A DNA stretch of 60,786 nt from the NCBI GenBank assembly GCA_964636965.1, contig CAZWST010000004.1:1-60786 (forward strand), read 5' to 3'. How positions within the stretch are numbered: the first letter of the stretch is position 1; each line of letters opens with the position of its first letter. The stretch is from an uncultured Muribaculaceae bacterium (lineage in GTDB: Bacteria; Bacillota_I; Bacilli_A; RF39; UBA660). Under the pieces are notes generated by a model. The model ran no database searches, was not told where the DNA came from, and saw nothing but the letters and a program-made list of their open reading frames with translations. This document shows, in pieces, positions 6,587 to 60,786 of the stretch. Made by a program: the position numbers and the translations under genes.

Positions 6587-6943
6587 ATGAAGCTAGTTGT
6601 TGATAAAGATAAATGCATAGGTTGTGGTGCTTGCGTTGCAATTTCACCAAATAATTTTGATTTTGATGAAGATGGTTTATCGTCAGTTATCGGGGAAGAA
6701 GTTACTGATGAAACTAGAAACGCCATCGATGCTTGTCCTGTATATGCAATCTCAATAGATGAAAGTGCTAGTCAAGTTGAAAAAGATAAAAAACATGTAT
6801 GTTCATGTGGAGAAGAATGTAGCTGCGGTGATGAATGTGAGTGCGGGGACGAATGTAACTGTGAGAGTCATGGTTGCTGCTGTGAAAATTCTGAATGTGA
6901 ATATAAAGAAACTGAAGAAGATGAATTTGAAGAAGCTGCTTAA
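6587..6943 (+). CDS. single-cluster 4Fe-4S ferredoxin fused to a Cys-rich (CxCG[ED]E-repeat) acidic tail
   Basis: GGAGA RBS. Ferredoxin motif CIGCGACVAISP...CPVYAI. The tail CSCGEECSCGDECECGDECNCESHGCCCENSEC has 12 Cys in 33 residues. Confidence 0.8.
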   Translation: MKLVVDKDKCIGCGACVAISPNNFDFDEDGLSSVIGEEVTDETRNAIDACPVYAISIDESASQVEKDKKHVCSCGEECSCGDECECGDECNCESHGCCCENSECEYKETEEDEFEEAA

Positions 6944-7368: not shown

Positions 7369-7884
7369 TTATCTAGATATTTTCATATGAATATCTTCTT
7401 CAGTTTTGCCTATTCCATCTCTTATAAAGCCAACTTTTTCATAACAATGAATTGCTCTTAAATTGGTTGCATAAACATTTAATTCCATTCCATCTAAGTT
7501 TAATTCTTCATAAGCATATTTAATCAAAGCCTTAATAGCTTCAGTACCAAAATGCCTATCTTGTTTTAAGGCCGTAATAGAAATACCTAATTCTCCGATA
7601 TTGTTTTTAATTTCCATTATCTCTATATTTCCAATATATTCGCCAGTGTTTTTTTCTATCATGGAATAACACAAAGCATTTTCTTCAAGTTTAGAGTTTA
7701 ACCAATTCAACTCTTGTTCATAAGTATAACTGCGAACTTTATGACTAATCTTATTAGCAACATTAGGGTCATTTACCATAATTAAATAATCATTAACCAA
7801 TTTTTCACTTAATTTTACATAATAAATATTTTCTGATTCAAAAACTACTTCATAGTTTTGTTTTATAAAATCTATTTTTTCCAT
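7369..7884 (-). CDS. GNAT family N-acetyltransferase (RimJ/RimL-like)
   Basis: 171-aa ORF with a GGAGGA RBS. Acetyl-CoA-binding region ITALKQDRHFGTEAIKALIKYAYEEL and C-terminal NLRAIHCYEKVGF. Confidence 0.8.
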   Translation of the reverse strand: MEKIDFIKQNYEVVFESENIYYVKLSEKLVNDYLIMVNDPNVANKISHKVRSYTYEQELNWLNSKLEENALCYSMIEKNTGEYIGNIEIMEIKNNIGELGISITALKQDRHFGTEAIKALIKYAYEELNLDGMELNVYATNLRAIHCYEKVGFIRDGIGKTEEDIHMKISR

Positions 7885-10812: not shown

Positions 10813-11004
10813 ATGAGTCAAAAAGAATTAAATTATCTTGAAGATTTATATAATCATGAGAAATTGGTAATTGATATTTTATCTTCAAGTAAAGATGTAA
10901 TTGATGATGATAATTACATTACACTTATTGATAATCAAATGGATAGGCATAATGATTTAGTAAGTGACTTAGAAAAGTTAATGGGTGATATGTGTGGAGA
11001 ATAA
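10813..11004 (+). CDS. small helical hypothetical protein, upstream partner of the Coat F-like gene
   Basis: 63-aa ORF with a GGAGG RBS. It overlaps the next ORF by 20 nt. Confidence 0.45.
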   Translation: MSQKELNYLEDLYNHEKLVIDILSSSKDVIDDDNYITLIDNQMDRHNDLVSDLEKLMGDMCGE

Positions 11005-11245
11005 AATAATATTAGAAAATGTTCTAACATTAACAAAATCACTTACTACACTTTATTTATATGCAACTATTGAATCAAGTAATGAAAGTGTTAGAAATGT
11101 ATATAATAATGGCTTGATTGAAGCTCTATCTATGCAAGATGAAATTTATCAAAATATGAAAGATGATGGAATTTATAGTGTTGAAAATATCAATGCTTCT
11201 GCAATAAAAAAAGTTTTAAAAAAATTAACAAAAGACGAATCATAA
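10985..11245 (+). CDS. Coat F domain-like spore coat protein
   Basis: Pattern LENVLTLTKSLTTLYLYATIESSNESVRNVYNNGLIEALSMQDEIYQNMKDDGIY resembles the Coat_F four-helix domain. The start is uncertain: GTG at 10985 or 10994. Confidence 0.5.
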   Translation: MICVENKIILENVLTLTKSLTTLYLYATIESSNESVRNVYNNGLIEALSMQDEIYQNMKDDGIYSVENINASAIKKVLKKLTKDES

Positions 11246-13793: not shown

Positions 13794-15008
13794 ATGCTAG
13801 TGATGTTTATGAAAATATTAATTGTGATTTTATCAGTTTTATTTTTGACTGGATGTGGGAAAAAAGAAGTTATTCCTGAAGATGTTATTATCGACGTTAA
13901 AGATATCAAGATAGAAGTTTTTAGTGAGTCTACACTTAGTGATTTAATTGGTAACACTAATACAATGATAAATAATTTAAATAGTACTTTAGATACTAGT
14001 GATATAGGTAATAAAGATATTGAAGTGGAGTTTACTTATGCTGATAAAACTTATAAAAAGAAAGTTGAATATACAGTTGTTGATTCTATAAATCCTGTTT
14101 TTATAAATGCTCCAACATTTAGGACAATAAAAGTATTAAATGATTATTATCCTTGTGATGAAATAGTGTTTGGTGATAATTACGACAGATCCCCTACTTG
14201 TGAAATAGATGGTGAATATGATTTAACTAAATCTGGTATTTACGAAGTTCAGTATGTTATTAAAGATTCATCTAATAATGAAACACGAAAGAATTTAAAA
14301 ATAAACGTAGTTGATGAAATATCTTCAAATGGTAATTCAAATAAACAAACTACAACACTTCCAATTTCGAATGTAATAAGTGAAAAAAAGAATGATGATG
14401 TGATGATTGGAATAGATGTTTCAAGATGGCAAGAAACAATAGATTTTGAAAGAGTAAAAAATGCTGGAGTTGAATTTGTTATAATGCGTATGGGAATTAA
14501 TTCAGATATTGATAAAGATATTTCAATGGATTCGTACTTTAGGCAAAACATTGAAGGCGCAAAGAATGCAGGCTTAAAGGTGGGTGTTTATATCTATACA
14601 GCAGCAACTAATAAAGAAACTGCTCTTGAACATGCTAGATGGACGCTTCGTGCTCTTGATGGAATAGATCTCGATTTCCCGGTTGCATTTGATTGGGAAA
14701 ACTGGAGTAAGTTTAGAAAGTATGGAATAAGTATCCATGATTTAGATGAAACATTATGTGCTTTTGCTCAAGAATTAAAAAGTGGTGGCTATGACACTAT
14801 GCTATATAGTAGTAAGTTCTATTTAGAAAACATTTGGATGAATAGATTAAAGTTGCCTGTTTGGTTAGCACATTATACAAATCAAACTAATTATGAAGGA
14901 GATTACTTCTTATGGCAAATGAGTAATGTTGGCCGAGTTGATGGTATAAAAGGTAACGTTGATATTGATATTCTGTATAAAAATAAGACTAGTTTAAATC
15001 TAAACTAG
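13794..15008 (+). CDS. lipoprotein GH25 muramidase (lysozyme) with N-terminal Ig-like region
   Basis: Lipobox LFLTGCGKK. GH25 signature GIDVSRWQETIDFERVKNAGVEFVIMRMG and the C-terminal WQMSNVGRVDGIKGNVDIDI. The true start is possibly ATG 13809. Confidence 0.8.
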   Translation: MLVMFMKILIVILSVLFLTGCGKKEVIPEDVIIDVKDIKIEVFSESTLSDLIGNTNTMINNLNSTLDTSDIGNKDIEVEFTYADKTYKKKVEYTVVDSINPVFINAPTFRTIKVLNDYYPCDEIVFGDNYDRSPTCEIDGEYDLTKSGIYEVQYVIKDSSNNETRKNLKINVVDEISSNGNSNKQTTTLPISNVISEKKNDDVMIGIDVSRWQETIDFERVKNAGVEFVIMRMGINSDIDKDISMDSYFRQNIEGAKNAGLKVGVYIYTAATNKETALEHARWTLRALDGIDLDFPVAFDWENWSKFRKYGISIHDLDETLCAFAQELKSGGYDTMLYSSKFYLENIWMNRLKLPVWLAHYTNQTNYEGDYFLWQMSNVGRVDGIKGNVDIDILYKNKTSLNLN

Positions 15009-15012
15009 TCTT

Positions 15013-15432
15013 TTATTTTTGCATAAATTCTTGATACCATTGAGATATCTTATCACTTTTAACGCTTGGATTATGAGTATATTCCAAGTACTCATTTTTA
15101 GTCATTTTTTCTTCTTGCTCTCTTCTATAGTTATTAAATTTTTTTTCAATAAACAAGTCATTTAAATATCCTTGAAGAAGTGATATTTTATACTCAATTG
15201 CATCATTATTAATTTTATATCTTAAATATGTATCATCAACTTTAAATTTATCAAAGTTATTTTCTAAATCATAGTCTTCTGATATATCTATATTGTTGAT
15301 ATGATAACTTCTTATTTTTCCCATAAGTAAGCTTATATCTTGTTGGTAAGCTTCTTTAATTTTTCTTACCTCATCACGATCAGTTGATAGCATACTATAA
15401 AGTTCACTGTATTCATCTGTCATATTAATCAC
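15013..15432 (-). CDS. hypothetical helical protein (gene 7 of the FtsK-domain operon)
   Basis: 139-aa ORF. Its start overlaps the stop of the upstream gene by 4 nt (ATGA). No TM segment and no recognised motif. Confidence 0.55.
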   Translation of the reverse strand: MINMTDEYSELYSMLSTDRDEVRKIKEAYQQDISLLMGKIRSYHINNIDISEDYDLENNFDKFKVDDTYLRYKINNDAIEYKISLLQGYLNDLFIEKKFNNYRREQEEKMTKNEYLEYTHNPSVKSDKISQWYQEFMQK

Positions 15433-17012
15433 CTAATTCCAAACCCGATTTTTGCTTCACTTTGTATTGCCATAGAGTAACCTCTTAAACGATTACAATA
15501 ATATTCACGATCAGTTTCAGTAAGTAATCTGGCATTATATGCATCTTCTACTTTTTGATAAGCTTTTTCAATATAAGAATTCAAACGAACTTCAGTTCCA
15601 GCAAGACTACCTAAATTATTTGCATCATGCTCAATTGTTAAAACATCTTGTTTAATATTGCTAATAAGCTCGTTTAATTCAACTTTGGCTCTTTCAACTT
15701 CAGGGGATTGATAACCAATTGTTGCTTCTAAAACTAATCTTTTTTCATTTATTCTATTTAGTAATAAAGTAAATGCACTTTTTAGTTGTATATCCTTTAT
15801 TCCTTTATTTAAAGCATCTCCATATCTTTCTAAAGCTTTACCATATAATGTGCTGTATTCATCTAGTGTTGTGAATCCATTAAGTTCATTAGTCATTGAA
15901 TTTATTTCACTGAATAATACATCTGCATATTCTTCTGCATTACCATTTACCTTTATTAAATTTCTTTGTTTATTTGCAATAAGTTCGCTTACAGAATTTA
16001 TATATGGATTTACATCTTTATATACTTCGCTATTTCTTGCATCCTCTACTATAGAATCAAAATATTTAGTTACAGACTCCAAGTCATGTATAGTTGTAGT
16101 TCCATCGATTGTTTGTTTAAGTTTGTTTAAAACATCACGATAATATTCTTCAGATGTAACTGATTCATTCTTACCTAGATTAGTAAGTTGTGAAGAGATT
16201 TCTGCATCAGTTAATAAACTAGATTGAACTACCGGTATTTCAGCGGTTACTTCTGGTACTGAGTCTTCATTTAATCTTATTTGTATTTCACTTACTAATC
16301 CTGGATTATCTCCGGTTTTATTGTGTTCATCTTCTTTTTTTCTTTCAAGTTCTTTCTTTTGCGTTGCTAAAACTTCTGCTTGATGGTCAACTATTTCTTT
16401 AATAAATTCATTTAAATCAATTGATTTTTCTCCAAAGTTAACTGAATATTCTGTATCCATCTTTGTTGGAAGAACTTTAACAATATATTCTCTTACCGTA
16501 ATATTCATACCATCTAAAGTAGATTCTAATATTTCCTTATCTACTCTGCTTACATAGTATTCACATGATTCAATTTTTCCTTCTAAAGTTGGTGCTTTAT
16601 ATTCATCATTTAATACTTTTCGATATAATTCACTTAATTCAATAGTCTTACCAGCATAGTTAAGAGTTCCATCATCATTCATAAATTCAAGGGCATATTG
16701 AATTAAATAATCACTTACATTTCTAAATTCATTTGGACCAATTTGAATAACATCAATAAAATTAGGATTTTCTTTAATAAATTCTCTTACACTTTTTAAT
16801 CTAATGTCATTTAGGTTTAATCTTGTTACTAATTTTTCATTAATATCTTGAGCAACTCTTAAAGGGTCGGCGCCATCTTTAACAAAAAGGTTCGCATTAC
16901 TCTCCAAAAACTCAAATAAAGGAATACGTTTGTCTTGGGATATGATTGTTGCATTTGCAAATGAATTAGGTAATAATTGCTCTGCTTGTTTAATAATGTC
17001 AAGTTTTTCCAT
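15429..17012 (-). CDS. hypothetical 527-aa soluble two-domain protein (gene 6 of the FtsK-domain operon)
   Basis: AGGAGGA RBS. An N-terminal ~215-aa domain, a charged low-complexity linker and a C-terminal all-helical region. No TM segment and no recognised motif. Confidence 0.55.
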   Translation of the reverse strand: MEKLDIIKQAEQLLPNSFANATIISQDKRIPLFEFLESNANLFVKDGADPLRVAQDINEKLVTRLNLNDIRLKSVREFIKENPNFIDVIQIGPNEFRNVSDYLIQYALEFMNDDGTLNYAGKTIELSELYRKVLNDEYKAPTLEGKIESCEYYVSRVDKEILESTLDGMNITVREYIVKVLPTKMDTEYSVNFGEKSIDLNEFIKEIVDHQAEVLATQKKELERKKEDEHNKTGDNPGLVSEIQIRLNEDSVPEVTAEIPVVQSSLLTDAEISSQLTNLGKNESVTSEEYYRDVLNKLKQTIDGTTTIHDLESVTKYFDSIVEDARNSEVYKDVNPYINSVSELIANKQRNLIKVNGNAEEYADVLFSEINSMTNELNGFTTLDEYSTLYGKALERYGDALNKGIKDIQLKSAFTLLLNRINEKRLVLEATIGYQSPEVERAKVELNELISNIKQDVLTIEHDANNLGSLAGTEVRLNSYIEKAYQKVEDAYNARLLTETDREYYCNRLRGYSMAIQSEAKIGFGIR

Positions 17013-17059
17013 TCATATCCTCCTTTACTTTACATATTTAATTATAGCAAAAAAAAAGA

Positions 17060-17476
17060 CTATTTAGTAGTCCTTTTTTGATATAAAATGAAATTCCATT
17101 TATCGTCTCCAATAAGTTCTTCTATGCATTCGTAGTTTTCCTTAAATAAGTATTTTATTGTTTCTTCAGAAACTATATGTTTATTGTTTATAAGTAATAT
17201 AATTCCTTCTTCTTTAAGCATACTAGTTATTTTATTAAGTGTGTTAGCAAGTAAATCGTACTTATCACATTCAAAGTAACTATTTAGGATTATACCATCA
17301 ACAAATGCATGTTCATTTTCATCAATTATGATAAGATTTTTTGAATTTAGAAACTCGATATCCTTCTCGCTTTTATTACCATATAACATTATTTTATTGT
17401 TTTTTAATAATTTTATAAATTGTTTATAATATGGAATTAAAAATGTATTATCATTAATATAGTCAACATTATTCAT
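17060..17476 (-). CDS. hypothetical protein, weakly class-I-methyltransferase-like Rossmann remnant (gene 5)
   Basis: 138-aa ORF overlapping the upstream gene by 8 nt. The pattern IMLYGNKSEKD...IIIDENE...VDGIILNSYFE...MLKEEGIILLI resembles MTase strands, but the GxGxG SAM motif is absent. Confidence 0.3.
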   Translation of the reverse strand: MNNVDYINDNTFLIPYYKQFIKLLKNNKIMLYGNKSEKDIEFLNSKNLIIIDENEHAFVDGIILNSYFECDKYDLLANTLNKITSMLKEEGIILLINNKHIVSEETIKYLFKENYECIEELIGDDKWNFILYQKRTTK

Positions 17477-18227
17477 CTAAATGTAATACTTCTTTTATAA
17501 TTGAATCGGAAAATTCAAAATTATGATATTTAAATACTTGATTCTTTGTTTTAGCTAAGAATGTACCGATTTCAAGATTATTGGAGCCTTCAATGTTATT
17601 TTTTTCACTTTCTGATTCATTAGTATAATCAAATGAAATAAGAAGGGATGCAAATACATTCTTATCCGTTTCAAAGAACTTATTATGAACATCACTTGTT
17701 GCTAATAGTAACATAATGTTTAAACCGGCAAGTTGACTTATAATGCCTGATAACATTTTTTCTGTATCTTCTTCTCTAAGTAAGAATTTATCATCATCTA
17801 TTGCAATAACTAAAAGAGGTATTTTTTCATCAGTCATTTCATTGTATTCATCGATTGTAGTAACACTCTTTTCATTTAATAATGACTTTCTTCTATCTAT
17901 TTCTTCTAAAACTTTAGCTAAGGCAACTATTGATTTGTCTAAGTCATTTATTGCTTTAAAAATTGGATAATTAGTATTTTCATAATAATTAAGTTCTACA
18001 CCTGATGTATCTACTAGTATAAGTTGCATTTCAAGAGATGTATATTCACTTATTAACTCTAAAAGTATTTGATCTAATAAAATAGATTTGCCGCTTCCAG
18101 TTTCTCCAGTAATAATTATAGAAGGATTTGTTTTAACATCAACTACTAATTTTTCTCCACCAGCAGAACTACCTAAAACTAATTTTCCCTTCTTTATATC
18201 ATTTTTTAATATATCTCTAAAATCCAT
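17469..18227 (-). CDS. stand-alone FtsK/SpoIIIE-family P-loop ATPase domain (gene 4)
   Basis: Aligns by eye along the whole FtsK motor core. Residues LGSSAGGEKLVVDVKTNPSIIITGETGSGKS (Walker A), LILVDTSGVELNYY, EIDRRKSLL, IPLLVIAIDD (Walker B) and NIMLLLATSDV (FtsK has ATQRP here). No TM, FHA or gamma domain. Confidence 0.8.
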   Translation of the reverse strand: MDFRDILKNDIKKGKLVLGSSAGGEKLVVDVKTNPSIIITGETGSGKSILLDQILLELISEYTSLEMQLILVDTSGVELNYYENTNYPIFKAINDLDKSIVALAKVLEEIDRRKSLLNEKSVTTIDEYNEMTDEKIPLLVIAIDDDKFLLREEDTEKMLSGIISQLAGLNIMLLLATSDVHNKFFETDKNVFASLLISFDYTNESESEKNNIEGSNNLEIGTFLAKTKNQVFKYHNFEFSDSIIKEVLHLDE

Positions 18228-18235
18228 AGTCCCTC

Positions 18236-18631
18236 CTAAAGTTCATAATCTTTTATTTTTACAAGTAATTTGTTAATTGTTTCATCTTTTCCTTCTAATG
18301 GAACATTTATAGAAAAGAAGGTATTATCTTCTGTATCAGTTACTTCTGTTATGAAAATCTTATCTTTATCAAGATCAATTATTTTGTTATCAATTAACAT
18401 CTTCTTTATTGCTTTTGGTGAAATAGACTCAATATCTAAATTAGATATAAATATGGTTGCATTAGTTATTCCATAGCTTGACCATACTTCAACACGATAT
18501 GGTCTGTTATCTTCAAGTGTTCCTTCATTATAACCTATATTACAAACTTCTGTATCACTTGTAAAATCTATTGTGTCTCTTACTATACTTGGATAATCCA
18601 TATAATCACTCCTTAACTTAGGCATTTTCAA
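18236..18631 (-). CDS. hypothetical 131-aa protein (gene 3)
   Basis: ORF overlapping the upstream gene by 14 nt. Soluble, with no recognised motif. Confidence 0.5.
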   Translation of the reverse strand: MKMPKLRSDYMDYPSIVRDTIDFTSDTEVCNIGYNEGTLEDNRPYRVEVWSSYGITNATIFISNLDIESISPKAIKKMLIDNKIIDLDKDKIFITEVTDTEDNTFFSINVPLEGKDETINKLLVKIKDYEL

Positions 18632-18833
18632 TGCTCATTAATATTAAATAAACTTTCTTTAAGTCTTCTTCCTTAACTTTTAAATCTCTTAAAATAGAAT
18701 ATGCCTCTTCCATAGTCATTTCAAAAAAACAATTATCATTTTTTAAAATATTTTTTATTAATGTATATTTTTCTTTATCAACGCTTAATAAATTTTCTGC
18801 TTGGTTTCTTAATTTATCTAACAATTCTATCAC
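18618..18833 (-). CDS. hypothetical 71-aa helical protein (gene 2)
   Basis: ORF overlapping the upstream gene by 20 nt and the downstream gene by 14 nt. Confidence 0.45.
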   Translation of the reverse strand: MIELLDKLRNQAENLLSVDKEKYTLIKNILKNDNCFFEMTMEEAYSILRDLKVKEEDLKKVYLILMSIENA

Positions 18834-20544
18834 CTACGTATCTACTTATCCCTGGTATTTCATTAGAGTTTTGCAAACTTGTGCTATCAATGTAATAGTA
18901 CTCATTGTCACTTAAAAGAGATGTTAATTCTTCAATGGAAACACTTCTTAAATTGTTCTTGCTTTTATTATCAATAACGATATAATGATACTCATTATCA
19001 AATATTGAAACAATTATTACTGGACTTAAATATGATGAATCATTTTTTCTAGCTAAAATATTTACTCTAATATTCTTATTATTTTTAAATAATGTCAAAA
19101 ATAATTTCTTCGTATAGCCAACTAGTTCAAGTCCATCTAAATTCATTCTAGAAATCTCTTTTAATAATATATATACTTTGTCGATTGCAGGTATTTTAGA
19201 ATATTTTAAAGTTAATTTATAAGAATTAAGTGAATCTTGGAAAGTTTTTCTTTCTTCTCTTTTTTCTATGATATCCTTATAAACTTTTTCTGTTAATTCT
19301 TTAAATTTTTGCTTAGTAGTTTTATTTTTATTGATTGAAGTAATATTAACTAATCTATCATTAATCTTAACATTAGTAATGTCACTTGCACTTGGATTAG
19401 CAAGGGAGGAAATAGAAACTAAGTATTCTCCATACTTGAATGTTAATAAATTACCTGCTTCTTCTACACCATTCATGAGTGATTGGTTCAAAGTATAATC
19501 TATTTTTAAGTCAGCTAAAATAGATGCATAAAGAGATATAAAATCATACATTGTAATTTTATTGTTATTAGGACTCTTTTTATTAATATTTTCATTATTC
19601 TCATGTTCAGCAAGTAAGACATCTGTTCTATCCAAATAGTAATTATCATCTAATGAAAATACTTCACATAATTTAATATAATAAAATATTGCTTTTTCTA
19701 AATTAGAATAACTATTATTAATATCCTTATTTAGGTAATCTTCTAAGGGTTCGGATATTTCTATTTTATCGATGATGCTTTCTCCATTTTCATCAATATC
19801 ATTTTTTACTCGATTCTTATTAATAGATTCAAAATCTATTAGTGAATAATTTTTTATACTTTCATATCTTTTAAGAATTTTATCAGAGAAGACATACTTA
19901 ATTGTAATTCTTTCTCTTTCAACGAAGTCAACTAAAGCATAGGCAAGTATTTCTTTGGCATAACCAAAATTGATGTCCCCATTAATAAACTTATTAAATT
20001 CTTCATCACTGCAAGATAGTATACGAAGTAAAACTGAAACAGGGATTTGAAGACATGATTCGTTTATGTAAGTTACATGAATATTATTTCTGTATCTTTG
20101 TTCACAAGAAAATAATACCCAAGAACTTCTTATTACAGCTGAACGCATCAATTCTTTTTTTGATAATTCTTTATTCATTTGATCTAATGCTTCAATGAAT
20201 TCTTTTCTAGTTAGCTTTAATGAAGCAACACTTTTAGAATCTATTATATAATCTATTCTTACTGCAATACCTAGATCATTACTTAAGTTTGTCTGAAGAT
20301 ATCTATACATTCCTTCATCATCAAGCAAGTCATGTATAAGCTTTTTACTTATACTCTTATTTTCTTCAGCATTTATAACTATTAAATCATCGTTTTTATA
20401 TTCTAAAAATAATGATTCATTTTTTAAGATAAGAGAGGAAGCAATGTTTTTTCTAATGGATTGACCAAATTCATTAGCTATCTCTTCTTGAGTATAAAAA
20501 TTTTCTTTATTTAAAAACTTTTCATATTCAAGTCGTGAAGACAT
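18814..20544 (-). CDS. hypothetical 576-aa soluble protein (gene 1)
   Basis: AAGGAGG RBS. The central segment LEKAIFYYIKLCEVFSLD...KITMYDFISLYASILADLKIDY weakly recalls a transglutaminase-like core, but with Met where the catalytic Cys would be. This is a very tentative reading. Confidence 0.5.
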   Translation of the reverse strand: MSSRLEYEKFLNKENFYTQEEIANEFGQSIRKNIASSLILKNESLFLEYKNDDLIVINAEENKSISKKLIHDLLDDEGMYRYLQTNLSNDLGIAVRIDYIIDSKSVASLKLTRKEFIEALDQMNKELSKKELMRSAVIRSSWVLFSCEQRYRNNIHVTYINESCLQIPVSVLLRILSCSDEEFNKFINGDINFGYAKEILAYALVDFVERERITIKYVFSDKILKRYESIKNYSLIDFESINKNRVKNDIDENGESIIDKIEISEPLEDYLNKDINNSYSNLEKAIFYYIKLCEVFSLDDNYYLDRTDVLLAEHENNENINKKSPNNNKITMYDFISLYASILADLKIDYTLNQSLMNGVEEAGNLLTFKYGEYLVSISSLANPSASDITNVKINDRLVNITSINKNKTTKQKFKELTEKVYKDIIEKREERKTFQDSLNSYKLTLKYSKIPAIDKVYILLKEISRMNLDGLELVGYTKKLFLTLFKNNKNIRVNILARKNDSSYLSPVIIVSIFDNEYHYIVIDNKSKNNLRSVSIEELTSLLSDNEYYYIDSTSLQNSNEIPGISRYVGDRIVR

Positions 20545-20568: not shown

Positions 20569-20577
20569 ATTATAACA
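20569..20577 (-). promoter_or_regulatory. putative extended -10 (TGTTATAAT) upstream of the seven-gene operon
   Basis: On the minus strand TGTTATAAT lies about 25 nt upstream of the AAGGAGG RBS of the gene starting at 20544. Confidence 0.3.
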
Positions 20578-20630
20578 TGGTCAAGTATATGTATTCACTT
20601 AATTATAGTAACTTTTACATTTATTTGCGT

Positions 20631-20660
20631 AAAAAAATAGAGTGAAGTTAATTCACTCTA
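20631..20660 (-). terminator. rho-independent terminator ending ABC cassette A
   Basis: 9-bp stem TAGAGTGAA/TTCACTCTA with a 5-nt loop, followed on the minus strand by a run of 7 U. Confidence 0.7.
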
Positions 20661-20726: not shown

Positions 20727-21125
20727 CTACTTTTCCGAATCAAGTCCATTATTAATATAAAAAGTTCCACTTATTGCTGCATTTTCGGTCTCATTTAACC
20801 ATTTAGATTTAGTGTCTTTAATTCCTGTAAATGTATACTCACATGGATAACCTTTATTAATTTCTGTTATGCCAAAAAAGTTTTCTCCAGATTTTTCATA
20901 AATTCCAAATGCATTTTTTCTAGAAACTGTGTTAGTTATCCACAATGGTGCTCTTCCAATATAACTTGCCTTTACTGCAGTAGTTAATTTTGCTGTTGTA
21001 CTTGCTTTTGTAATAGTTAAACTTTTACCAGATTGAATAGTTGCTACTTGCGATTTTGCAACTGCTACAGATACTCCAGCAATACTTACACCTACTATAG
21101 TAAGTAATATAAATACCTTTTTCAT
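20727..21125 (-). CDS. small secreted protein (signal peptide plus ~105-aa mature part), last gene of cassette A
   Basis: Start at ATG 21125 with RBS AGGGGGGAA. Signal peptide MKKVFILLTIVGVSIAGVSVAVA followed by KS. No recognised domain. Confidence 0.55.
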   Translation of the reverse strand: MKKVFILLTIVGVSIAGVSVAVAKSQVATIQSGKSLTITKASTTAKLTTAVKASYIGRAPLWITNTVSRKNAFGIYEKSGENFFGITEINKGYPCEYTFTGIKDTKSKWLNETENAAISGTFYINNGLDSEK

Positions 21126-21163
21126 TTTTCTTTTCCCCCCTTCTAGCAAAATAAAAAATTTAA

Positions 21164-22231
21164 TTACGATTTTAATTTTGCAATATTTAATTTATTATTA
21201 ATTGTTCCTATCAACAATAAATTAGCTAATAATTCTATTAAAACAATAGCAATTAAATGTTTATAGCTAAATACTACTTCTATTTTAAGCATTTGCTCTA
21301 ATAGTTTATTTATGGATAAGCTAAATATAATAGCTAGTGATGTAGCAATTATATTTATACTACTAAATCTTTTTAAGATATTAATTTTTATTTTCTTATT
21401 ATAAAATCCAAATATTTTTTCTAACTTAATATTTTTCTTCATATCTGTTAAAATGTTTTTATATATTATAATAATCATTAATAAGAACATTACATTTAAT
21501 ATTAAAATAATGTATGTTAAATATATTAGATATTCTTCTAAATTTTCATAAACAGAAACACCACTTGAGTTGGAAAAAGAAATAACATCAATAAAGTCTG
21601 ATTCTTCTTTTTTTAAATTTAAAAAGTCATTTTCAATTAGCGGTTCATACTTTTCCTTCTTTATTCTAGAAATATATGTATATTTTTTCTCTCGTTTAAC
21701 TATTTCATTAAAAATATTATTTGAAACCCTTATTTCGTTTATTTCTTTTGAATCATATAAGTTTTTTATAGTTAATTCATGGCTACCATAATAATTAATT
21801 ATGATTTTACGTCCGATATATTTTTGAATATTAGGTTTTATATTTTCATAAGTTGTAGAATCAAATCCTAATAGTACTTCATTTTCTTTTAATTCATTAT
21901 TAATATCATTATAGATAATTAAGTTATCAAACCCAGCATTATTAATTTGAAAATTAATTTTATCATCTAATATTAAAACCTCTTTATTATTTGATAATGG
22001 AATAACTAATGCTTCTTGCACGTCTTCTAAATATTCATTTGAAACTAGTTTGTTTTTTAAATCTTTTTGAGTTTTTACTACAAATATAGTTCTCTTGGTA
22101 TATATATCATGGATTGATAATTCTATACCTGTTTTTATTGAATTTAATGTTAGAAGTGTCATAATTATTATCGTAAATACTAGTATATATATGTGTGTAC
22201 TTTTCTTAATAATAAATTCTTTTATAATCAT
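21164..22231 (-). CDS. FtsX-type permease subunit 2 (divergent), cassette A
   Basis: One N-terminal TM, a ~200-aa extracytoplasmic region and three C-terminal TMs. FtsX-like segment KLEKIFGFYNKKIKINILKRF. Starts 3 nt after the upstream permease gene. Confidence 0.6.
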   Translation of the reverse strand: MIIKEFIIKKSTHIYILVFTIIIMTLLTLNSIKTGIELSIHDIYTKRTIFVVKTQKDLKNKLVSNEYLEDVQEALVIPLSNNKEVLILDDKINFQINNAGFDNLIIYNDINNELKENEVLLGFDSTTYENIKPNIQKYIGRKIIINYYGSHELTIKNLYDSKEINEIRVSNNIFNEIVKREKKYTYISRIKKEKYEPLIENDFLNLKKEESDFIDVISFSNSSGVSVYENLEEYLIYLTYIILILNVMFLLMIIIIYKNILTDMKKNIKLEKIFGFYNKKIKINILKRFSSINIIATSLAIIFSLSINKLLEQMLKIEVVFSYKHLIAIVLIELLANLLLIGTINNKLNIAKLKS

Positions 22232-22233
22232 AG

Positions 22234-23502
22234 CTAATCACCTTCATAACGAATTATTGAATTTTTAAATTGTTTTTCTACATAACATATATTAGTTAAA
22301 GATGAAGTGATTCCAATAATTAGTAAACCAATTATGATTATTAAGTAAGGCATAAAATATACTACTCCAATATTAATAAGTTTTTCCTTCATTGATAAAG
22401 AAATAATTGTATTTGTCACAAGTGCAAATAAGATAACGCTTAATGAGCTTATAAAAATTATAAAGAAATTATCAATCAAATAATAAGCTTTTATGTTGTT
22501 TTTTTGATAACCTACGGATGATAGCATACTTATAAAATGAGAATTATTTAGTATTTTTTTCTTTATGTATAATAACGAAATTATAAAAATGCCAATTAGT
22601 GAAATAATACTAACAACAGATAAAATACTTATTAATTTAATTAGATATGACGAAGATACATACGATTTATAATTAACTGAATATCCTAATCTTTCTAATT
22701 CCCTTTTCACGTTAGCAACATTTTTTCTAGAATCTATATGAACAAATAGAGAAGTTACACTTGAAAAGTCTTTTTTGGGTAAGTAATCTTTTATCATTTC
22801 TTCTAATTGCTTACCAGAGATAAAACATTGATTCATTTCAAAATAAGAATTTTTTATATCATAAACTCCTACTATTTTAAATTCTACTGTTTTTTCTCCA
22901 ATTATGATATTTTTTTCTTTTTCTTTATCATATTTTCTAAGATCATACTTACCAGAAATATTTGAATTTAGCAAGGAGTTGCCATCAAGCATCTCTTTTT
23001 TCTCCATTTCTTTATAAGTAATTGATTCTTTAGGAATAATCTTATTTGAACATATAGCTACATTTTCATCATCATATTTTATTTCATGACCCGCAATTAA
23101 ATTAGGTATAGAAGTTTCGGTTCCATATAGCAAATATAAAGTTTCACCCTGATAAGGTCCAATCTTTACATCGTTTATTGCTATCATACTTTCCTTAGAG
23201 GAATATACATCAGTTATATGCTCAATGCTCTTTATTTCATCAAAATTGTAAGCATAATCATTGGTATCGTTTTTTAAGATGTACTTCATCATTTCAGCTT
23301 TGCTAGGTAAAACTATTAAAGTTCTAAAGCTTGTATTTTTGTTAAATTGAGTGTTCAAATTAATGTAATATAAATAAGCCATACATAGAACAATTATAAA
23401 AATTATTGAACACAAACTCATCATCATAATATAATATATATTTTTCTTATCCCTTATATTTCTTTTAAAGATAAAATTAATGTGAGGTAACATTTGTTTC
23501 AT
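22234..23502 (-). CDS. FtsX/MacB-type ABC permease subunit 1, cassette A
   Basis: Topology TM1, a large extracytoplasmic domain, then 3 TM. FtsX motif ISMLSSVGYQKNNIKAYYLIDNF. ATGA overlap with the ATPase gene. Confidence 0.75.
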   Translation of the reverse strand: MKQMLPHINFIFKRNIRDKKNIYYIMMMSLCSIIFIIVLCMAYLYYINLNTQFNKNTSFRTLIVLPSKAEMMKYILKNDTNDYAYNFDEIKSIEHITDVYSSKESMIAINDVKIGPYQGETLYLLYGTETSIPNLIAGHEIKYDDENVAICSNKIIPKESITYKEMEKKEMLDGNSLLNSNISGKYDLRKYDKEKEKNIIIGEKTVEFKIVGVYDIKNSYFEMNQCFISGKQLEEMIKDYLPKKDFSSVTSLFVHIDSRKNVANVKRELERLGYSVNYKSYVSSSYLIKLISILSVVSIISLIGIFIISLLYIKKKILNNSHFISMLSSVGYQKNNIKAYYLIDNFFIIFISSLSVILFALVTNTIISLSMKEKLINIGVVYFMPYLIIIIGLLIIGITSSLTNICYVEKQFKNSIIRYEGD

Positions 23503-24188
23503 TTTTTCACCTCTACTATATTCTTATCATCTAACTCATATAAGACATCTGCATATTTTTTTACTTCATCACTGTGAGAAACTACAATAATACACTTACC
23601 TTCTTTGCTTAGATTTTTTAATAGTTCAAATATTTTCTTTTCATTTGTTTTATCTAAGTTTCCTGTTGGTTCATCGGCTATTATTATATCTGGGTTATTT
23701 GCAAGGGAGCGCGCTATTGCAACTCTTTGTTTTTCTCCTCCACTTAACTCTTTTGGAAAATGATCATATCTATTTTTTAAATCTACTTTATCTAAAAGGC
23801 TTATAGATATTGCCTTCATATCTTTTTTGTATATTCTTTTATTTATTAACATTGGATACATGACATTTTCATAAGCTTTTAAGTATTCATCTAAGAAATA
23901 ATCTTGGAATACAAATCCAATTGTGTCTCTTCTTAATTCTGCTAATTCATTATCGCTTAATTTTGATACATCATTTTTGTTTAATAAATATGTCCCATCA
24001 GTTGCTTGATCAAGCAACCCTATAATATTAACTAGTGTTGACTTGCCTGAACCGGAGTGTCCCATGATTGCATAAAACTTTCCTTTTTCAAATGATACAT
24101 TTAGACTATCTAATACTAGTAGGCTTCTTTTTTTCATTTGATATAATTTTCTTATTTTCTTTAATTCAATTACTTTTTGTGCGTGCAT
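23499..24188 (-). CDS. ABC transporter ATP-binding protein (MacB/LolD-type), cassette A
   Basis: Walker [11 protein letters not shown]-loop FVFQDY, signature [14 protein letters not shown], Walker [13 protein letters not shown]. Confidence 0.9.
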
Positions 24189-24282: not shown

Positions 24283-24312
24283 CAAAAAAAATAACAGATA
24301 GTGTCTGTTATT
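24283..24312 (-). terminator. rho-independent terminator after the XRE regulator gene of cassette A
   Basis: Stem AATAACAGA/TCTGTTATT with a 5-nt loop, overlapping the stop codon and followed on the minus strand by a U-run. Confidence 0.6.
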
Positions 24313-25381
24313 TAACATATTCATTATATAATTCAAAAAACTCATTTGCTAACTCTGACCCATTCTTTGTTTCTATTATTTCCATCGAAACCTCATCACC
24401 TTCATATTTTTTATAAAATAGAGAATCATATGCTATATGATAATTCCAAGTCTTACTATAATTCAAATAATCTTTTTTTAGAATGAATAAACCAGCATCA
24501 GGAAAATATGTCATTGTCATATTAAAATAATCCATTTTCTCCTGATATCTATATGAATCATTGTTGTATGTGAAATTATTTAGTATTTTTTCTGGAATAT
24601 CTGGATCATGATATTTTACTTTATCATTTTTTTCACTTATATTTTCTTTATTTTTAAATAATATTTTATTATTTTCATAATCCTTTATAACATTAAGATT
24701 TATTTCCTCACTTTCTTCACCATAATAAATTATTAATTGCAAATTCATTTTGTCTTTTACTATATCGTCATAGTTAAAATATTCTTCGTAATTATAAAAG
24801 TCAGCTAGATATATTGATTTTCTGTTTGAATTTTTAACAACTAATTTTTTATCATTACCTGAATTTTGGTATAGCGATATGCTTTTTATTTTTTTATCCT
24901 TAATTTCTTCTACGCTTATACTAAAATATATTTTTTCTTTTGATGCAATAAGTAATCCTTCATTGGTTTTGAAATTACTGCTTGCTCCCTCAACTTTATA
25001 GACTTTAACTGAATTATACGAATTAAAAAAATAATATGATAGAAAGATAATAATAAGGGCAACACATATTAAGGTAATTGATGTAATCATTATTTTATAT
25101 TTTGACTTGATACTTTTTATAGAAAAGTTGTTTATTTTCTCGATTGTTTGGTTAATAACTTCTTTTTTATATTTTCCACCATTGTATATATCTAATACTG
25201 TAACTCCAAAAATATTTGATAGTATTAAGGCACGATCTACACTAAGTTTTATCTTTCCATGTTCAATATCAGAAAGTCCATTTCTACTAATATGTATAGA
25301 ATTAGCTAATTCTTCCTGTGTTATTCTTTTTGTTTCTCTTAGTTCTTTTATATATTTACCAATTTCTTCATCAGAAACCAT
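24308..25381 (-). CDS. membrane-tethered XRE-family HTH regulator with large extracytoplasmic C-terminal domain, cassette A
   Basis: HTH_3 motif IKELRETKRITQEELANSIHISRNGLSDIEHGK, a single TM (ITSITLICVALIIIFLSYYFF), then a ~230-aa C-terminal domain. Start placed at ATG 25381. The track start at 25417 is a TTG. Confidence 0.75.
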   Translation of the reverse strand: MVSDEEIGKYIKELRETKRITQEELANSIHISRNGLSDIEHGKIKLSVDRALILSNIFGVTVLDIYNGGKYKKEVINQTIEKINNFSIKSIKSKYKIMITSITLICVALIIIFLSYYFFNSYNSVKVYKVEGASSNFKTNEGLLIASKEKIYFSISVEEIKDKKIKSISLYQNSGNDKKLVVKNSNRKSIYLADFYNYEEYFNYDDIVKDKMNLQLIIYYGEESEEINLNVIKDYENNKILFKNKENISEKNDKVKYHDPDIPEKILNNFTYNNDSYRYQEKMDYFNMTMTYFPDAGLFILKKDYLNYSKTWNYHIAYDSLFYKKYEGDEVSMEIIETKNGSELANEFFELYNEYVK

Positions 25382-25481
25382 ATAACCACGTCTTTTCTTT
25401 ATATCTTTATAATACAACTTTTTATAACGAGTGTCATTCTTTTTTATAAATCATTTGACCCCCGCTTTTTTCCTTTTTTAA

Positions 25482-29872: not shown

Positions 29873-30682
29873 TTATTTGAAATTACATTTCTTACATAAT
29901 TCTTCAATTCTTATATTATTTTTAAAACCTTCTTCTATACTTCTATACCTTTTTGAAGATCTTATTTCATCTAAATTATTTTCATAAATATTACCTAATT
30001 TAATAACTCCCTCGGAATCTAAACAACAAGGAACAACAGAGCCATCAGAAAGTATTCCAATATGATCTTTTAATGCATAACATGAGCCAGAATTATTTAA
30101 TTCACAAGAATCATTTGGCCAAATAAATTCATCATGTGTACTAATAAATATATTTTTACTTATTGTAGAATTATTCTTTATATTTTTATAATCAAGATTT
30201 GAATTATACTTTTTGTTTAATATATCAATTATATCTTTATTATAAATAGATGTTACCCAAAGACGATAAGAGATAAATGAATACTCTTTTAATTTATCAG
30301 TTACTTCAAATATATCATTTAAATAATCTTCAAGGCTTTTGTTGTAACGTTCATTATAGCTATGTAAGGATATATTAAGTTGTCTAATATTTTTATTATC
30401 TTTTATATTTTTTATTAAATAACCATTAGTAGTTATATTTACTTTATAATTCTTAGAAGCTAGGTCAATTAATTCATTTATTTTAGGATGTATGAGTGGT
30501 TCACCTAATATATGAAAATAAAGATAGTCAGTATAATTATTTAACTTTTCTAAAATTATTTTAAAATTATCTATAGTAATAAATTCTTTAGGCCTTTTTG
30601 ATTTAGCACAAAAAGGACAAGTTAAATTACAACTATTAGTTATTTCTACATATATTTTTTTATACTTCTTCATTTTCTTCAC
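29873..30682 (-). CDS. radical SAM enzyme with C-terminal SPASM/twitch-type Cys cluster
   Basis: CNLTCPFC (CxxxCxxC) at residues 18-25. C-terminal Cys pattern C...CYALKDHIGILSDGSVVPCCLD...CKKC. Confidence 0.8.
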   Translation of the reverse strand: MKKMKKYKKIYVEITNSCNLTCPFCAKSKRPKEFITIDNFKIILEKLNNYTDYLYFHILGEPLIHPKINELIDLASKNYKVNITTNGYLIKNIKDNKNIRQLNISLHSYNERYNKSLEDYLNDIFEVTDKLKEYSFISYRLWVTSIYNKDIIDILNKKYNSNLDYKNIKNNSTISKNIFISTHDEFIWPNDSCELNNSGSCYALKDHIGILSDGSVVPCCLDSEGVIKLGNIYENNLDEIRSSKRYRSIEEGFKNNIRIEELCKKCNFK

Positions 30683-31217
30683 GTTTTATTCTAATTGAAT
30701 CTACAAGTTTTCTTACTTTTTCTTCTCTTTGTTCACAAGATAAAGTAATATTTTTGTTTCCAAAGTAAGTATATCCACTATATATACTTTTTTCCATACT
30801 ATTTATCTCACTCAAATAATCATTAATATTAGTTATAATTGATGAAAGATATATTGTTAAAAGATAAGCAGCTTCTAAGTCAGGAAAATCACCAGTTTTA
30901 AAACCATTATTTAAATATCTTTTTAATTCTTCTGATGAAGATACATAAAGTTCGTAATAGCTATCAACTGAAGCATATGCCTCTTTTATAATACTCTCAT
31001 TTATATTTTTAAATAATGAGATTGATTTATAAAGCATGATAATAAACTTATATTGTAGTCTCACCTTTTTGCTATATTTTGTGTAATCCCATAATCCACC
31101 AATTATATCAACTACATCATCTTCTAAAGATAGATCTCCTTCTTCATACTTTTTTATTGTACTAAGTACTAATTCTGCATCTTTTTTTACATCATCATCT
31201 AAAATTGTATCTTCCAT
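30660..31217 (-). CDS. hypothetical 185-aa helical protein
   Basis: GGGGGA RBS. The 3' end overlaps the radical SAM start by 23 nt, which suggests translational coupling. Confidence 0.5.
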   Translation of the reverse strand: MEDTILDDDVKKDAELVLSTIKKYEEGDLSLEDDVVDIIGGLWDYTKYSKKVRLQYKFIIMLYKSISLFKNINESIIKEAYASVDSYYELYVSSSEELKRYLNNGFKTGDFPDLEAAYLLTIYLSSIITNINDYLSEINSMEKSIYSGYTYFGNKNITLSCEQREEKVRKLVDSIRIKREENEEV

Positions 31218-33416: not shown

Positions 33417-33490
33417 AGAGGATTGGTGTAATGGTAACATAGGAGTCTCCAAAACTTTTGCTGGGAGTTCGATTCTCTCATCCTCTGCCA
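33417..33490 (+). tRNA. tRNA-Trp (anticodon CCA)
   Basis: AGAGGATTGGTGTAATGGTAACATAGGAGTCTCCAAAACTTTTGCTGGGAGTTCGATTCTCTCATCCTCTGCCA. It has acceptor stem AGAGGAT/ATCCTCT, anticodon loop CTCCAAA, T-loop GTTCGATTC and an encoded CCA. Confidence 0.9.
33446..33490 (+). repeat. attL: 45-bp direct repeat (3' part of tRNA-Trp)
   Basis: TCTCCAAAACTTTTGCTGGGAGTTCGATTCTCTCATCCTCTGCCA is identical to 41933-41977. Confidence 0.9.
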
Positions 33491-60674: not shown

Positions 60675-60698
60675 TATATATTTTTACATAAAAAAAAG

Positions 60699-60786
60699 TT
60701 TGCAACTTCCTATTTTAGCTTATCACTATCGTCGGCGTTTTGGTGCTTAACTTCTCTGTTCGGTATGGGAAGAGGTGTCTCCACCA
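60699..60786 (-). rRNA. rrf: 5S ribosomal RNA, 3' ~88 nt (5' end outside the window)
   Basis: The reverse complement contains CTTCCCATACCGAACAGAGAAGTTAAGCACC...GCCGACGATAGTG...ATAGGAAGTTGC, which matches the universal 5S loop B/C and helix IV/V pattern. Confidence 0.85.

Follow-up and report, generated by a model that had tools for sequence, protein, structure and literature searches.

A vertically inherited operon built around a stand-alone FtsK-like ATPase domain in uncultured Erysipelotrichales-like Bacilli

Here we describe a seven-gene operon (genes A to G) on the minus strand of a 60,786-nucleotide stretch that makes up the whole of contig CAZWST010000004.1 from GenBank assembly GCA_964636965.1 (the whole stretch is hereafter referred to as the window). 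The operon occupies positions 15013-20544 and is a real, co-transcribed and vertically inherited unit that is restricted to one uncultured gut and rumen clade of Erysipelotrichales-like Bacilli. Its fourth gene, D, encodes an FtsK/SpoIIIE-type ATPase domain in which the nucleotide-binding site is perfect and the residues of the FtsK pump are gone; a motor function is therefore doubtful, and an ATP-gated switch or assembly hub fits better. Tentatively, the best explanation is that of a clade-specific operon encoding a soluble multi-protein complex, with D as its ATP-gated switch or assembly ATPase hub. Compared feature by feature with type VII secretion systems (T7SS), conjugation systems, the MADS and Ssp defence systems and canonical FtsK translocases, the operon is a member of none of them.

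Related loci (approximately 26, numbered with the prefix L) were obtained from gut, rumen and digester metagenomes and metagenome-assembled genomes (MAGs) by fetching contigs through D and C. Those that are labelled carry the names 'Erysipelotrichales bacterium' or 'Bacilli bacterium'.

Overall organization of the operon

The operon and its borders comprise the following features (aa, amino acids; nt, nucleotides; RBS, ribosome-binding site).

18814..20544, minus strand: gene A, 576 aa; multi-domain soluble protein, faster-evolving than C, D and G
18618..18824, minus strand: gene B, 68 aa, revised start TTG at 18824; small protein, in 19 loci
18236..18601, minus strand: gene C, 121 aa, revised start ATG at 18601; highly conserved, present in every D-carrying locus
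17469..18227, minus strand: gene D, 252 aa; stand-alone FtsK/SpoIIIE beta-domain (RecA-like) P-loop NTPase
17060..17476, minus strand: gene E, 138 aa; accessory, with a weak RBS and a start that overlaps the end of D by 8 nt
15429..17012, minus strand: gene F, 527 aa; conserved N-terminal domain, short motif NKTGDNPGLVSEIQ...TAEIP, variable C-terminal part
15013..15423, minus strand: gene G, 136 aa, revised start ATG at 15423; most constrained protein of the operon
14985-15012, both strands: bidirectional hairpin terminator, 12-bp stem with T-runs on both strands, common to the operon and the convergent GH25 gene
20569..20577, minus strand: extended -10 promoter element TGTTATAAT, located upstream of A at 24 nt from the start codon and 16 nt from the RBS
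20613..20634, minus strand: inverted repeat TTTTAC-N10-GTAAAA, TTTTACGCAAATAAATGTAAAA, approximately 35 nt upstream of the extended -10; candidate operator

An earlier note on this DNA had proposed seven minus-strand open reading frames (ORFs), and its coordinates, lengths and junctions were reproduced from the ORF list: 18814-20544 (A, 576 aa), 18618-18833 (B, 71 aa), 18236-18631 (C, 131 aa), 17469-18227 (D, 252 aa), 17060-17476 (E, 138 aa), 15429-17012 (F, 527 aa) and 15013-15432 (G, 139 aa), all on the minus strand; adjacent ORFs either overlap (by 20, 14, 8 and 4 nt) or are separated by 8 and 47 nt. The starts of B, C and G probably lie a few codons further in and were revised as given above, because ribosome-binding sites, orthologue alignments and independent gene calls in L039 (576, 68, 121, 252, 137, 527 and 136 aa for A to G) point to them. 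Packing stays tight with the revised starts, the junctions being, in order, an overlap of 11 nt, gaps of 16 and 8 nt, an overlap of 8 nt and gaps of 47 and 5 nt. Base composition (GC content) is the same as in the surroundings.

None of the seven window proteins contains a hydrophobic segment of transmembrane grade in hydrophobicity windows; the sole window above 1.6, 'LNIMLLLA', is a buried strand of the P-loop fold of D. Tight junctions, ribosome-binding sites, a conserved promoter and the lack of membrane segments bear out the proposal of one co-transcribed operon of soluble proteins. The 3' end of the operon faces a convergent GH25 muramidase gene, also as proposed, across the 12-bp hairpin. 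At the 5' border, where a terminator had been placed at 20631-20660, a hairpin and T-run upstream of A are readable in the sequence, yet the terminator scan did not list them.

D keeps its nucleotide-binding site and lacks the FtsK pump residues

D matches the Pfam FtsK_SpoIIIE family (PF01580) with an E-value of 3e-20 and 73.1 bits (cut-off 24), in line with the earlier assignment of the 252-aa protein to the FtsK/SpoIIIE core. By this profile match and the presence of the Walker A consensus GxxGxGK[ST], D is a member of PF01580. When a profile of the D family was compared with PDB sequences, it recovered Pseudomonas aeruginosa FtsK (PaFtsK; 2iuu, 5e-17), TcpA (6o1w) and EccC/EssC/YukB. Among curated families the best score was that of T7SS EssC (NCBIfam, 69.7 bits, with FtsK at 45.2; the TIGR03928 cut-off is 778). 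The likeness to FtsK/SpoIIIE (PF01580; PDB 2iuu) extends over the entire RecA-like beta domain, including Walker A, the Walker B Asp, the ERR motif and the C-terminal strand region. By contrast, the membrane anchor, the linker, the alpha domain and the gamma domain (which reads the FtsK orienting polar sequences, KOPS) are all missing from D; neither FtsK_alpha nor FtsK_gamma was matched in Pfam and there is no membrane segment, so that D consists of the beta domain only.

The residues named for PaFtsK (E596, R548, R620, T630-Q631 and R632; numbering from bioRxiv 10.1101/2022.01.03.474797) were mapped onto D through HMMER and MAFFT alignments with 21 near-full-length (>200 aa) orthologues from the loci. 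Walker A reads GETGSGKS in D, and GETGxGKS is invariant in 21/21 of these orthologues and in 20 aligned database homologues. The Walker B Asp is likewise invariant in 21/21. At the position of the catalytic Glu596, however, the D family has an invariant Asp ('AIDDD'; Walker B 'DD'). The column equivalent to the arginine finger R620 is variable (A/N/Q/T/K/G/D) and that of R548 is occupied by T/S/L/D, with no arginine. The FtsK sensor and DNA-grip motif 'ATQR' reads 'ATSD', 'STNN' or 'ENDV': the Thr is mostly kept, the Gln is replaced by Ser or Asn and the Arg (R632) by Asp or Asn. FtsK 'PSVDVI' is replaced by an invariant N-x-F-F motif. As read from these alignments, nucleotide binding by D is strongly constrained and the elements of a cooperative DNA pump are lost. 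Tested against the features of an FtsK-type double-stranded DNA translocase, D lacks each of the following: the catalytic Glu, R620 and R548, 'ATQR', and the alpha, gamma and anchor parts. The earlier description of D as a 'motor' domain thus loses its footing.

A profile search of 1.84 billion representatives returned about a dozen 50%-identity clusters of the approximately 250-aa family of D, generic FtsK and EssC-like multi-domain proteins, and two further groups of small stand-alone FtsK domains in which the Walker B 'DE' is retained. Small stand-alone proteins of this kind in low-GC bacteria (approximately 250-290 aa; P0285, P0289, P0306 and the P0311 group, and a gene in L010) resemble D in size and in having a single beta domain, and part of them share N-x-F-F. 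They differ from D in keeping Walker B 'DE', in having in some cases a degenerate Walker A ('GTSKS') and, where known, in gene context. The L010 gene (9905-10681; 258 aa, 28% identical to D) lies among replication genes (DnaD/DnaB_2-like, DnaI-like and dnaE), between the DnaI-like gene and dnaE; its MAG contig is labelled Muribaculaceae, yet the gene set looks Firmicutes-like. The same search yielded a mini-FtsK family of approximately 280 aa with an N-terminal 'Y-x-L-P' motif (P0311, P0313 and others), and library proteins of 2,300-3,075 aa with six to eight tandem FtsK/SpoIIIE domains (P0284, P0286, P0288, P0291 and others), which are either genuine or fusions from assembly or gene calling.

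The operon is conserved as a block and inherited vertically

The order A-B-C-(insert)-D-(E)-F-G is common to the approximately 26 loci, so that the block does co-occur elsewhere, a point that the earlier note had proposed to check. All loci of sufficient extent contain C and D, and most contain B and G. A and F are recognisable, but at approximately 30% identity where C and D hold 45-60%. A genome scan with the D profile mostly picked up the generic Walker A pattern, true relatives numbering only two; in protein databases the abundance of C and D is comparable (168 and 146 clusters, respectively).

Ratios of non-synonymous to synonymous substitution (dN/dS) were computed against L039, with dS near 1 making the values approximate. 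They are 0.047 for G, 0.088 for D, 0.14 for C, 0.16 for B, 0.17 for A, 0.18 for F and 0.32 for E, compared with 0.064 for the flanking ABC-F gene and 0.13 for GH25, and they indicate that all seven genes are coding and under purifying selection; the concern that some ORFs might be non-coding is answered by this range (0.05-0.32). G is lower than the neighbouring ABC-F gene (0.047 versus 0.064), and in L007 and L018 its identity is 88%, against 69-78% for D.

In most loci the same GH25, CpXC and ABC-F genes follow the operon. Locus by locus, the identity of C, D and G to the window declines in the same rank order as that of ABC-F, GH25 and CpXC. This divergence in step with the flanking genes therefore argues for vertical inheritance at a fixed chromosomal site, and not for a mobile defence island; the variable-island setting raised earlier gives way to one chromosomal place held across a deep clade. 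Adjacency to GH25 is broken in L007, L025 and L036, and the operon is intact while its flanks change, as in L007, which has two genes between G and GH25. The neighbours are ABC transporters and housekeeping-type genes (GH25, CpXC, ABC-F); none is a defence gene. C has no relatives in phage records, plasmid records or IMG/VR viral contigs, and G has none in phage or plasmid records. A functional link between the operon and GH25 was considered and not adopted, the adjacency being shared with CpXC and ABC-F as general synteny.

Two kinds of variation occur inside the block. E was found only in L004, L017, L024, L039 and L040, that is, in 5 of approximately 18 informative loci, and is absent in L007, L018, L019, L001, L009 and others. 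Between C and D, several related lineages have an insert of one to four genes whose products are single-pass membrane or secreted proteins with Thr-rich low-complexity extracellular stalks and Cys-containing C-terminal ends. These inserts were located as follows.

L001, 6053-8293: membrane-protein insert between C and D
L004, 9098-9916: membrane-protein insert between C and D
L026, 2886-3482: membrane-protein insert between C and D
L034, 2487-2972: membrane-protein insert between C and D

They belong to four lineages (L001/L028/L031, L004/L024, L026 and L034) and are missing from most lineages and from the window operon. The presence of membrane proteins inside related loci means that the family is not strictly cytoplasmic. 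Of the seven-gene, cytoplasmic unit described earlier, the seven genes of the window therefore stand, and its extension to the family does not, given the accessory nature of E and the membrane proteins of relatives.

Upstream of the operon, the window differs from L039 by a 3.5-kb ABC/FtsX insertion. Positions 20727-24188, which separate the operon from a regulator gene of the XRE family (HTH_3; 24308-25417), hold genes for a 140-aa secreted or membrane protein, two FtsX-like permeases and an ABC ATPase; in L039 and L040 the cassette is absent and the regulator gene lies directly upstream of A. From this comparison, the cassette reads as an indel polymorphism bordering the operon on its 5' side.

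Promoter and upstream region

The extended -10 element TGnTATAAT is invariant across an alignment of nine upstream regions from divergent loci, and the operon promoter is accordingly read as housekeeping-type (sigma-A, extended -10). A sporulation promoter was considered and rejected, the conserved element being of the sigma-A type. The palindrome further upstream is kept at the same position in the window, L039, L040, L018 and L007/L008 (the last two being one genomic site), with one copy per locus, always upstream of A and nowhere else in the window or those loci. By itself the window match is weak (at least one match in 20/100 shuffles), and its support is the conserved position; it is a candidate operator for some regulator.

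Partner proteins of D

For A, B, C, F and G nothing at or near the curated threshold was found in Pfam, NCBIfam, PHROGs or PADLOC, and of all seven proteins only D scores in them, which upholds the earlier statement that only the 252-aa protein is recognisable. Family profiles of A, B, C, E, F and G compared with all PDB sequences gave nothing meaningful.

Of the two partners that were modelled, A and C, the latter gave the more confident structure. Its family comprises 168 database clusters, all of approximately 120 aa and without Pfam domains, and it has 20 invariant residues, including R8, R33 and R36. The AlphaFold2 model, built from the family alignment (predicted local distance difference test (pLDDT) 84, predicted template modelling score (pTM) 0.79) shows a beta-rich alpha/beta fold. 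Against the PDB, Foldseek gave a best E-value of 0.15 and template modelling (TM) scores of at most 0.42, with nothing at E<=1e-3. G has a conserved aromatic C-terminal tail, W-Y-x-E/D-F. B is probably helical.

A is preceded by a strong ribosome-binding site (AAAGGAGGT) and has orthologues in 18 loci. Its AlphaFold2 model, built from the family alignment, has several domains (pLDDT 77, pTM 0.42) and no Foldseek match at E<=1e-3 in the PDB or BFVD. Weak local matches to vasohibin, the Pan2 pseudo-UCH domain, USP14 and an N-acetyltransferase (papain/transglutaminase-like folds) were not relied on. Three candidate assignments were rejected. An inactive transglutaminase-like domain had low probabilities and no conserved Cys-His-Asp set, with 'xVxCYEFA' in few members. 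A ParB-type helix-turn-helix (HTH) was dropped when 14 members, scanned singly, gave no recurrent family and one match (E 0.09). A 252-aa protein of L001 was not supported as a short A (hhalign E 0.3).

The variable C-terminal part of F is suggested by its sequence to be helical, and the sole match of F in PDB sequences is a prefoldin coiled-coil (E=1). L009, of the most divergent group, carries a shortened F of 326 aa that matches the F N-terminal domain (hhalign E 6.6e-5). E shows a sub-threshold likeness to the C-terminal half of the class I methyltransferase fold (Pfam MTS, E 0.017; PADLOC mad2, E 0.004). As a class I S-adenosylmethionine-dependent methyltransferase, however, it does not qualify: there is no PDB methyltransferase match and the motif I position reads 'KIMLYGN' or 'ILVIGN'.

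Comparison with known systems

The closest curated likeness of D is to EssC/EccC/YukB. These T7SS ATPases combine FHA domains and membrane helices with three or four ATPase domains in tandem, whereas D is single-domain; a T7SS moreover depends on WXG100 substrates and on EssA, EssB and EsaA (or EccB, EccD and EccE), none of which is in the operon. A, B, C, E, F and G gave no Pfam or NCBIfam match to WXG100/LXG, EssA, EssB, EsaA or EsaB. From conjugation systems of the TcpA/VirD4 type the operon differs in having no membrane-anchored coupling ATPase and, by Pfam and NCBIfam, no relaxase or VirB4; it is chromosomal and vertically inherited, and C and G are absent from plasmids. The earlier conclusion that this is neither a type VII nor a conjugative apparatus is thus borne out by the lack of matching components and of membrane segments.

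With HerA/FtsK capture systems (DndH/SspH, BRC) and MADS (mad8), the operon shares a multi-gene layout that combines an FtsK/HerA domain with rapidly evolving partners (PMC10853773, PMC12839542, bioRxiv 10.1101/2023.03.30.534895), and D matches the SspH and mad8 models. The hallmark of capture systems is an FtsK/HerA domain linked to a nuclease, ORC/Cdc6 or winged HTH (wHTH) in mobile or defence neighbourhoods (PMC10853773). By contrast, sequence and fold searches detected no nuclease, ORC/Cdc6, PglZ, functional methyltransferase or demonstrable wHTH partner in the operon, although its orphan domains could conceal an effector, and its setting is neither mobile nor a defence island. Among PADLOC anti-phage systems (SspFGH, MADS, HerA-based), no multi-component match was obtained; D alone matches SspH, mad8 and HerA, in the P-loop region.

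FtsK-like proteins of phages and plasmids (Bacillus phages BtCS33 and DLc1; TcpA/TcpB of the Clostridium perfringens pCW3 type) are 26-31% identical to D over most of its length. They are longer (approximately 385 aa or more) and belong to mobile elements, on which they go together with genes for replication-relaxation or conjugation but not with A, B, C, F or G.

Other features of the window

Four further features were recorded outside the operon. The intergenic region between an ORF at 6587-6943 and a GNAT acetyltransferase gene (7369-7884) contains an Rfam ssNA-helicase RNA motif (RF03070; 7249-7297, plus strand; 47.3 bits, gathering score 41.5). A Coat_F (spore coat protein F) gene of 86 aa (10985-11245, plus strand) is preceded by a 63-aa ORF (10813-11004, plus strand), an arrangement that is the same in L004 and L039; because of this gene the host is suggested to form endospores and is probably a spore-former. 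A gene for a radical SAM/SPASM-domain protein, a type that is often a peptide maturase (29873-30682, minus strand), adjoins a 185-aa ORF (30660-31217). Finally, the RNA genes at positions 1-161, 33417-33490 and 60697-60786 are tRNA-Ser, a partial tRNA, tRNA-Trp and a 5S rRNA gene truncated at the window end.

Discussion

EccC and EssC contain degenerate, catalytically impaired FtsK-like ATPase domains to which a role as regulator or substrate receptor has been ascribed. These would be the closest precedent for D, and the behaviour proposed here is modelled on them. The operon products would form a soluble multi-protein complex with D at its hub, where D would not pump DNA processively but serve as an ATP-gated switch or assembly ATPase. 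The constrained partners C and G would bind and regulate D; C may provide arginines in trans, and the conserved aromatic tail at the C terminus of G may be its docking element. A and F, which are larger and evolve faster, could be adaptors or scaffolds toward a target, and E and the membrane proteins of relatives would be lineage-specific accessories.

Several points weigh against this reading. Asp in place of the catalytic Glu and the absence of the canonical arginines are no proof of low ATPase activity, for which another residue or a partner could compensate. D has its nearest relatives among DNA translocases and secretion ATPases, so that translocation of DNA or protein keeps some probability. 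The putative roles of C, G, A and F are drawn only from patterns of conservation, and the physical association of the proteins is presumptive. Conflict systems likewise show variable insertion points (as for E, and for the membrane proteins between C and D) and comparatively rapid change of the kind seen in A and F. Finally, every locus was retrieved through C or D, which makes the set no independent measure of universality within the clade.

The last but one of these points bears on the anti-phage or anti-plasmid role that the earlier note had put forward. In a defence of the 'HerA/FtsK capture' type, D would work with rapidly evolving DNA-binding adaptors, A and F, to intercept foreign DNA, the effector being hidden in A, C, F or G. 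The matches of D to PADLOC SspH (4e-16) and mad8 (1e-10), the weak match of E to mad2, the approximately 30% identity of A and F where C and D hold 45-60%, and accessory genes that vary at fixed insertion points all speak for it, as do precedents: FtsK domains have been recruited with wHTH proteins into defence operons (PMC10853773; PMC12839542), and the eight genes of the MADS defence operon include one for a methyltransferase, mad2 (bioRxiv 10.1101/2023.03.30.534895). We nevertheless regard it as unlikely. The PADLOC matches are confined to the shared P-loop domain, with none for A, C, F or G and two weak ones of coiled-coil type for B (BrxC, PDC-S57), and profile, PDB-sequence and A/C fold searches detected no nuclease, Sir2, TIR, ORC/Cdc6 or other effector domain, although an effector could hide in the orphan domains. 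The DNA-gripping arginine of D is replaced by Asp or Asn, and the HTH in A, seen in a single member (E 0.09), is not borne out by profiles. The site is fixed, its divergence keeps step with housekeeping neighbours, and those neighbours (ABC transporters, GH25, CpXC, ABC-F) are not those of a defence island. A cell-biological role in the clade is likelier than defence because the operon has been retained at one locus over deep divergence, has a housekeeping-type promoter and lacks a detectable effector domain; the phyletic pattern thus favours the former over an anti-phage role. The same catalytic features count against a genuine DNA-handling machine, in which D hexamers, recruited by a DNA-binding A, would translocate or remodel DNA in segregation, sporulation-linked transfer or repair. 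This is improbable, since the catalytic Glu is an Asp, every member lacks the two trans-acting arginines as well as the DNA-gripping arginine of loop II, D has no alpha or gamma domain, the HTH of A is not reproducible across the family, and no nuclease, recombinase or DNA-binding family was detected in the partners. Consistent with it are a beta domain that is complete to its C-terminal end, a short three-helix pattern at the N terminus of the A model with one weak ParB-HTH match, the conserved palindrome upstream of the operon and a host that is probably a spore-former; furthermore, the top matches outside the approximately 250-aa family are FtsK-type, many with several FtsK domains, and two of those checked (P0297 and P0298) have alpha and gamma domains.

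An export function receives similarly little credence. Here the operon products would be the cytoplasmic portion of a machine for export or assembly that spans the envelope and is remotely akin to T7SS or Tcp conjugation, with membrane partners elsewhere in the genome (within the operon in relatives) and GH25 aiding passage through the wall. The EssC score of D (69.7 bits versus 45.2 for FtsK), its PDB matches to EccC/EssC/YukB and the coupling protein TcpA, the substrate-receptor role described for degenerate EccC/EssC domains, and the single-pass membrane proteins with Thr-rich extracellular regions between C and D in four lineages fit such a machine, and a GH25 lipoprotein gene adjoins the operon in most loci. 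However, the inserts are absent from most lineages and the window operon has no membrane protein or signal peptide; WXG100, LXG, EssB, EsaA, YukD, VirB4 and relaxase are unmatched in Pfam and NCBIfam; D is single-domain, with neither FHA domains nor a membrane anchor; and the GH25 adjacency, shared with CpXC and ABC-F and broken in three loci, looks like general synteny. That GH25 is a lysozyme-family gene, that FtsK-like genes 26-31% identical to D are common in Bacillus phages and Clostridium plasmids, and that domestication of mobile elements is well known (PMC8987985) would also suit a domesticated remnant, a prophage or integrative-element module fixed in the ancestor of the clade. We give this origin hardly any probability: no integrase, replication, capsid or relaxase genes lie in or beside the operon, C and G have no phage or plasmid relatives and C none in viral contigs, the GC content is that of the surroundings, and phage modules differ in their layout (a small protein, an FtsK-like protein of approximately 385 aa, then a Rep-relaxation protein).

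The soluble complex organized by D remains the reading that we prefer. The earlier expectation of an undescribed system agrees with our results in that profile scans assigned no partner to a known system and Foldseek gave no PDB match at E<=1e-3 for the models of A and C, nor any in BFVD for A; in the literature on FtsK combined with Erysipelotrichales, nothing relevant was found. It is conceivable, though doubtful, that the operon encodes an undescribed soluble ATP-gated machine, made from a repurposed, non-pumping FtsK domain and from at least two partners, A and C, with predicted folds that lack a solved structural neighbour, and that it serves a clade-specific cellular or hitherto unrecognised immune function in abundant uncultured gut bacteria of the Erysipelotrichales-like group. 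The host bacteria are common in gut and rumen metagenomes and uncultured, and the value of the finding is limited by a narrow taxonomic range and the lack of a functional handle. Five conserved partners of D are orphan families, of which C and, moderately, A are confidently modelled without structural neighbours in the PDB, so that the operon offers new protein families in compact form. The established role of FtsK/HerA ATPases is to pump DNA or proteins; if the reading proposed here is true, D, a conserved domain under strong purifying selection, would clearly exemplify the conversion of a translocase fold into a nucleotide switch in a setting other than the multi-domain ATPases of T7SS.

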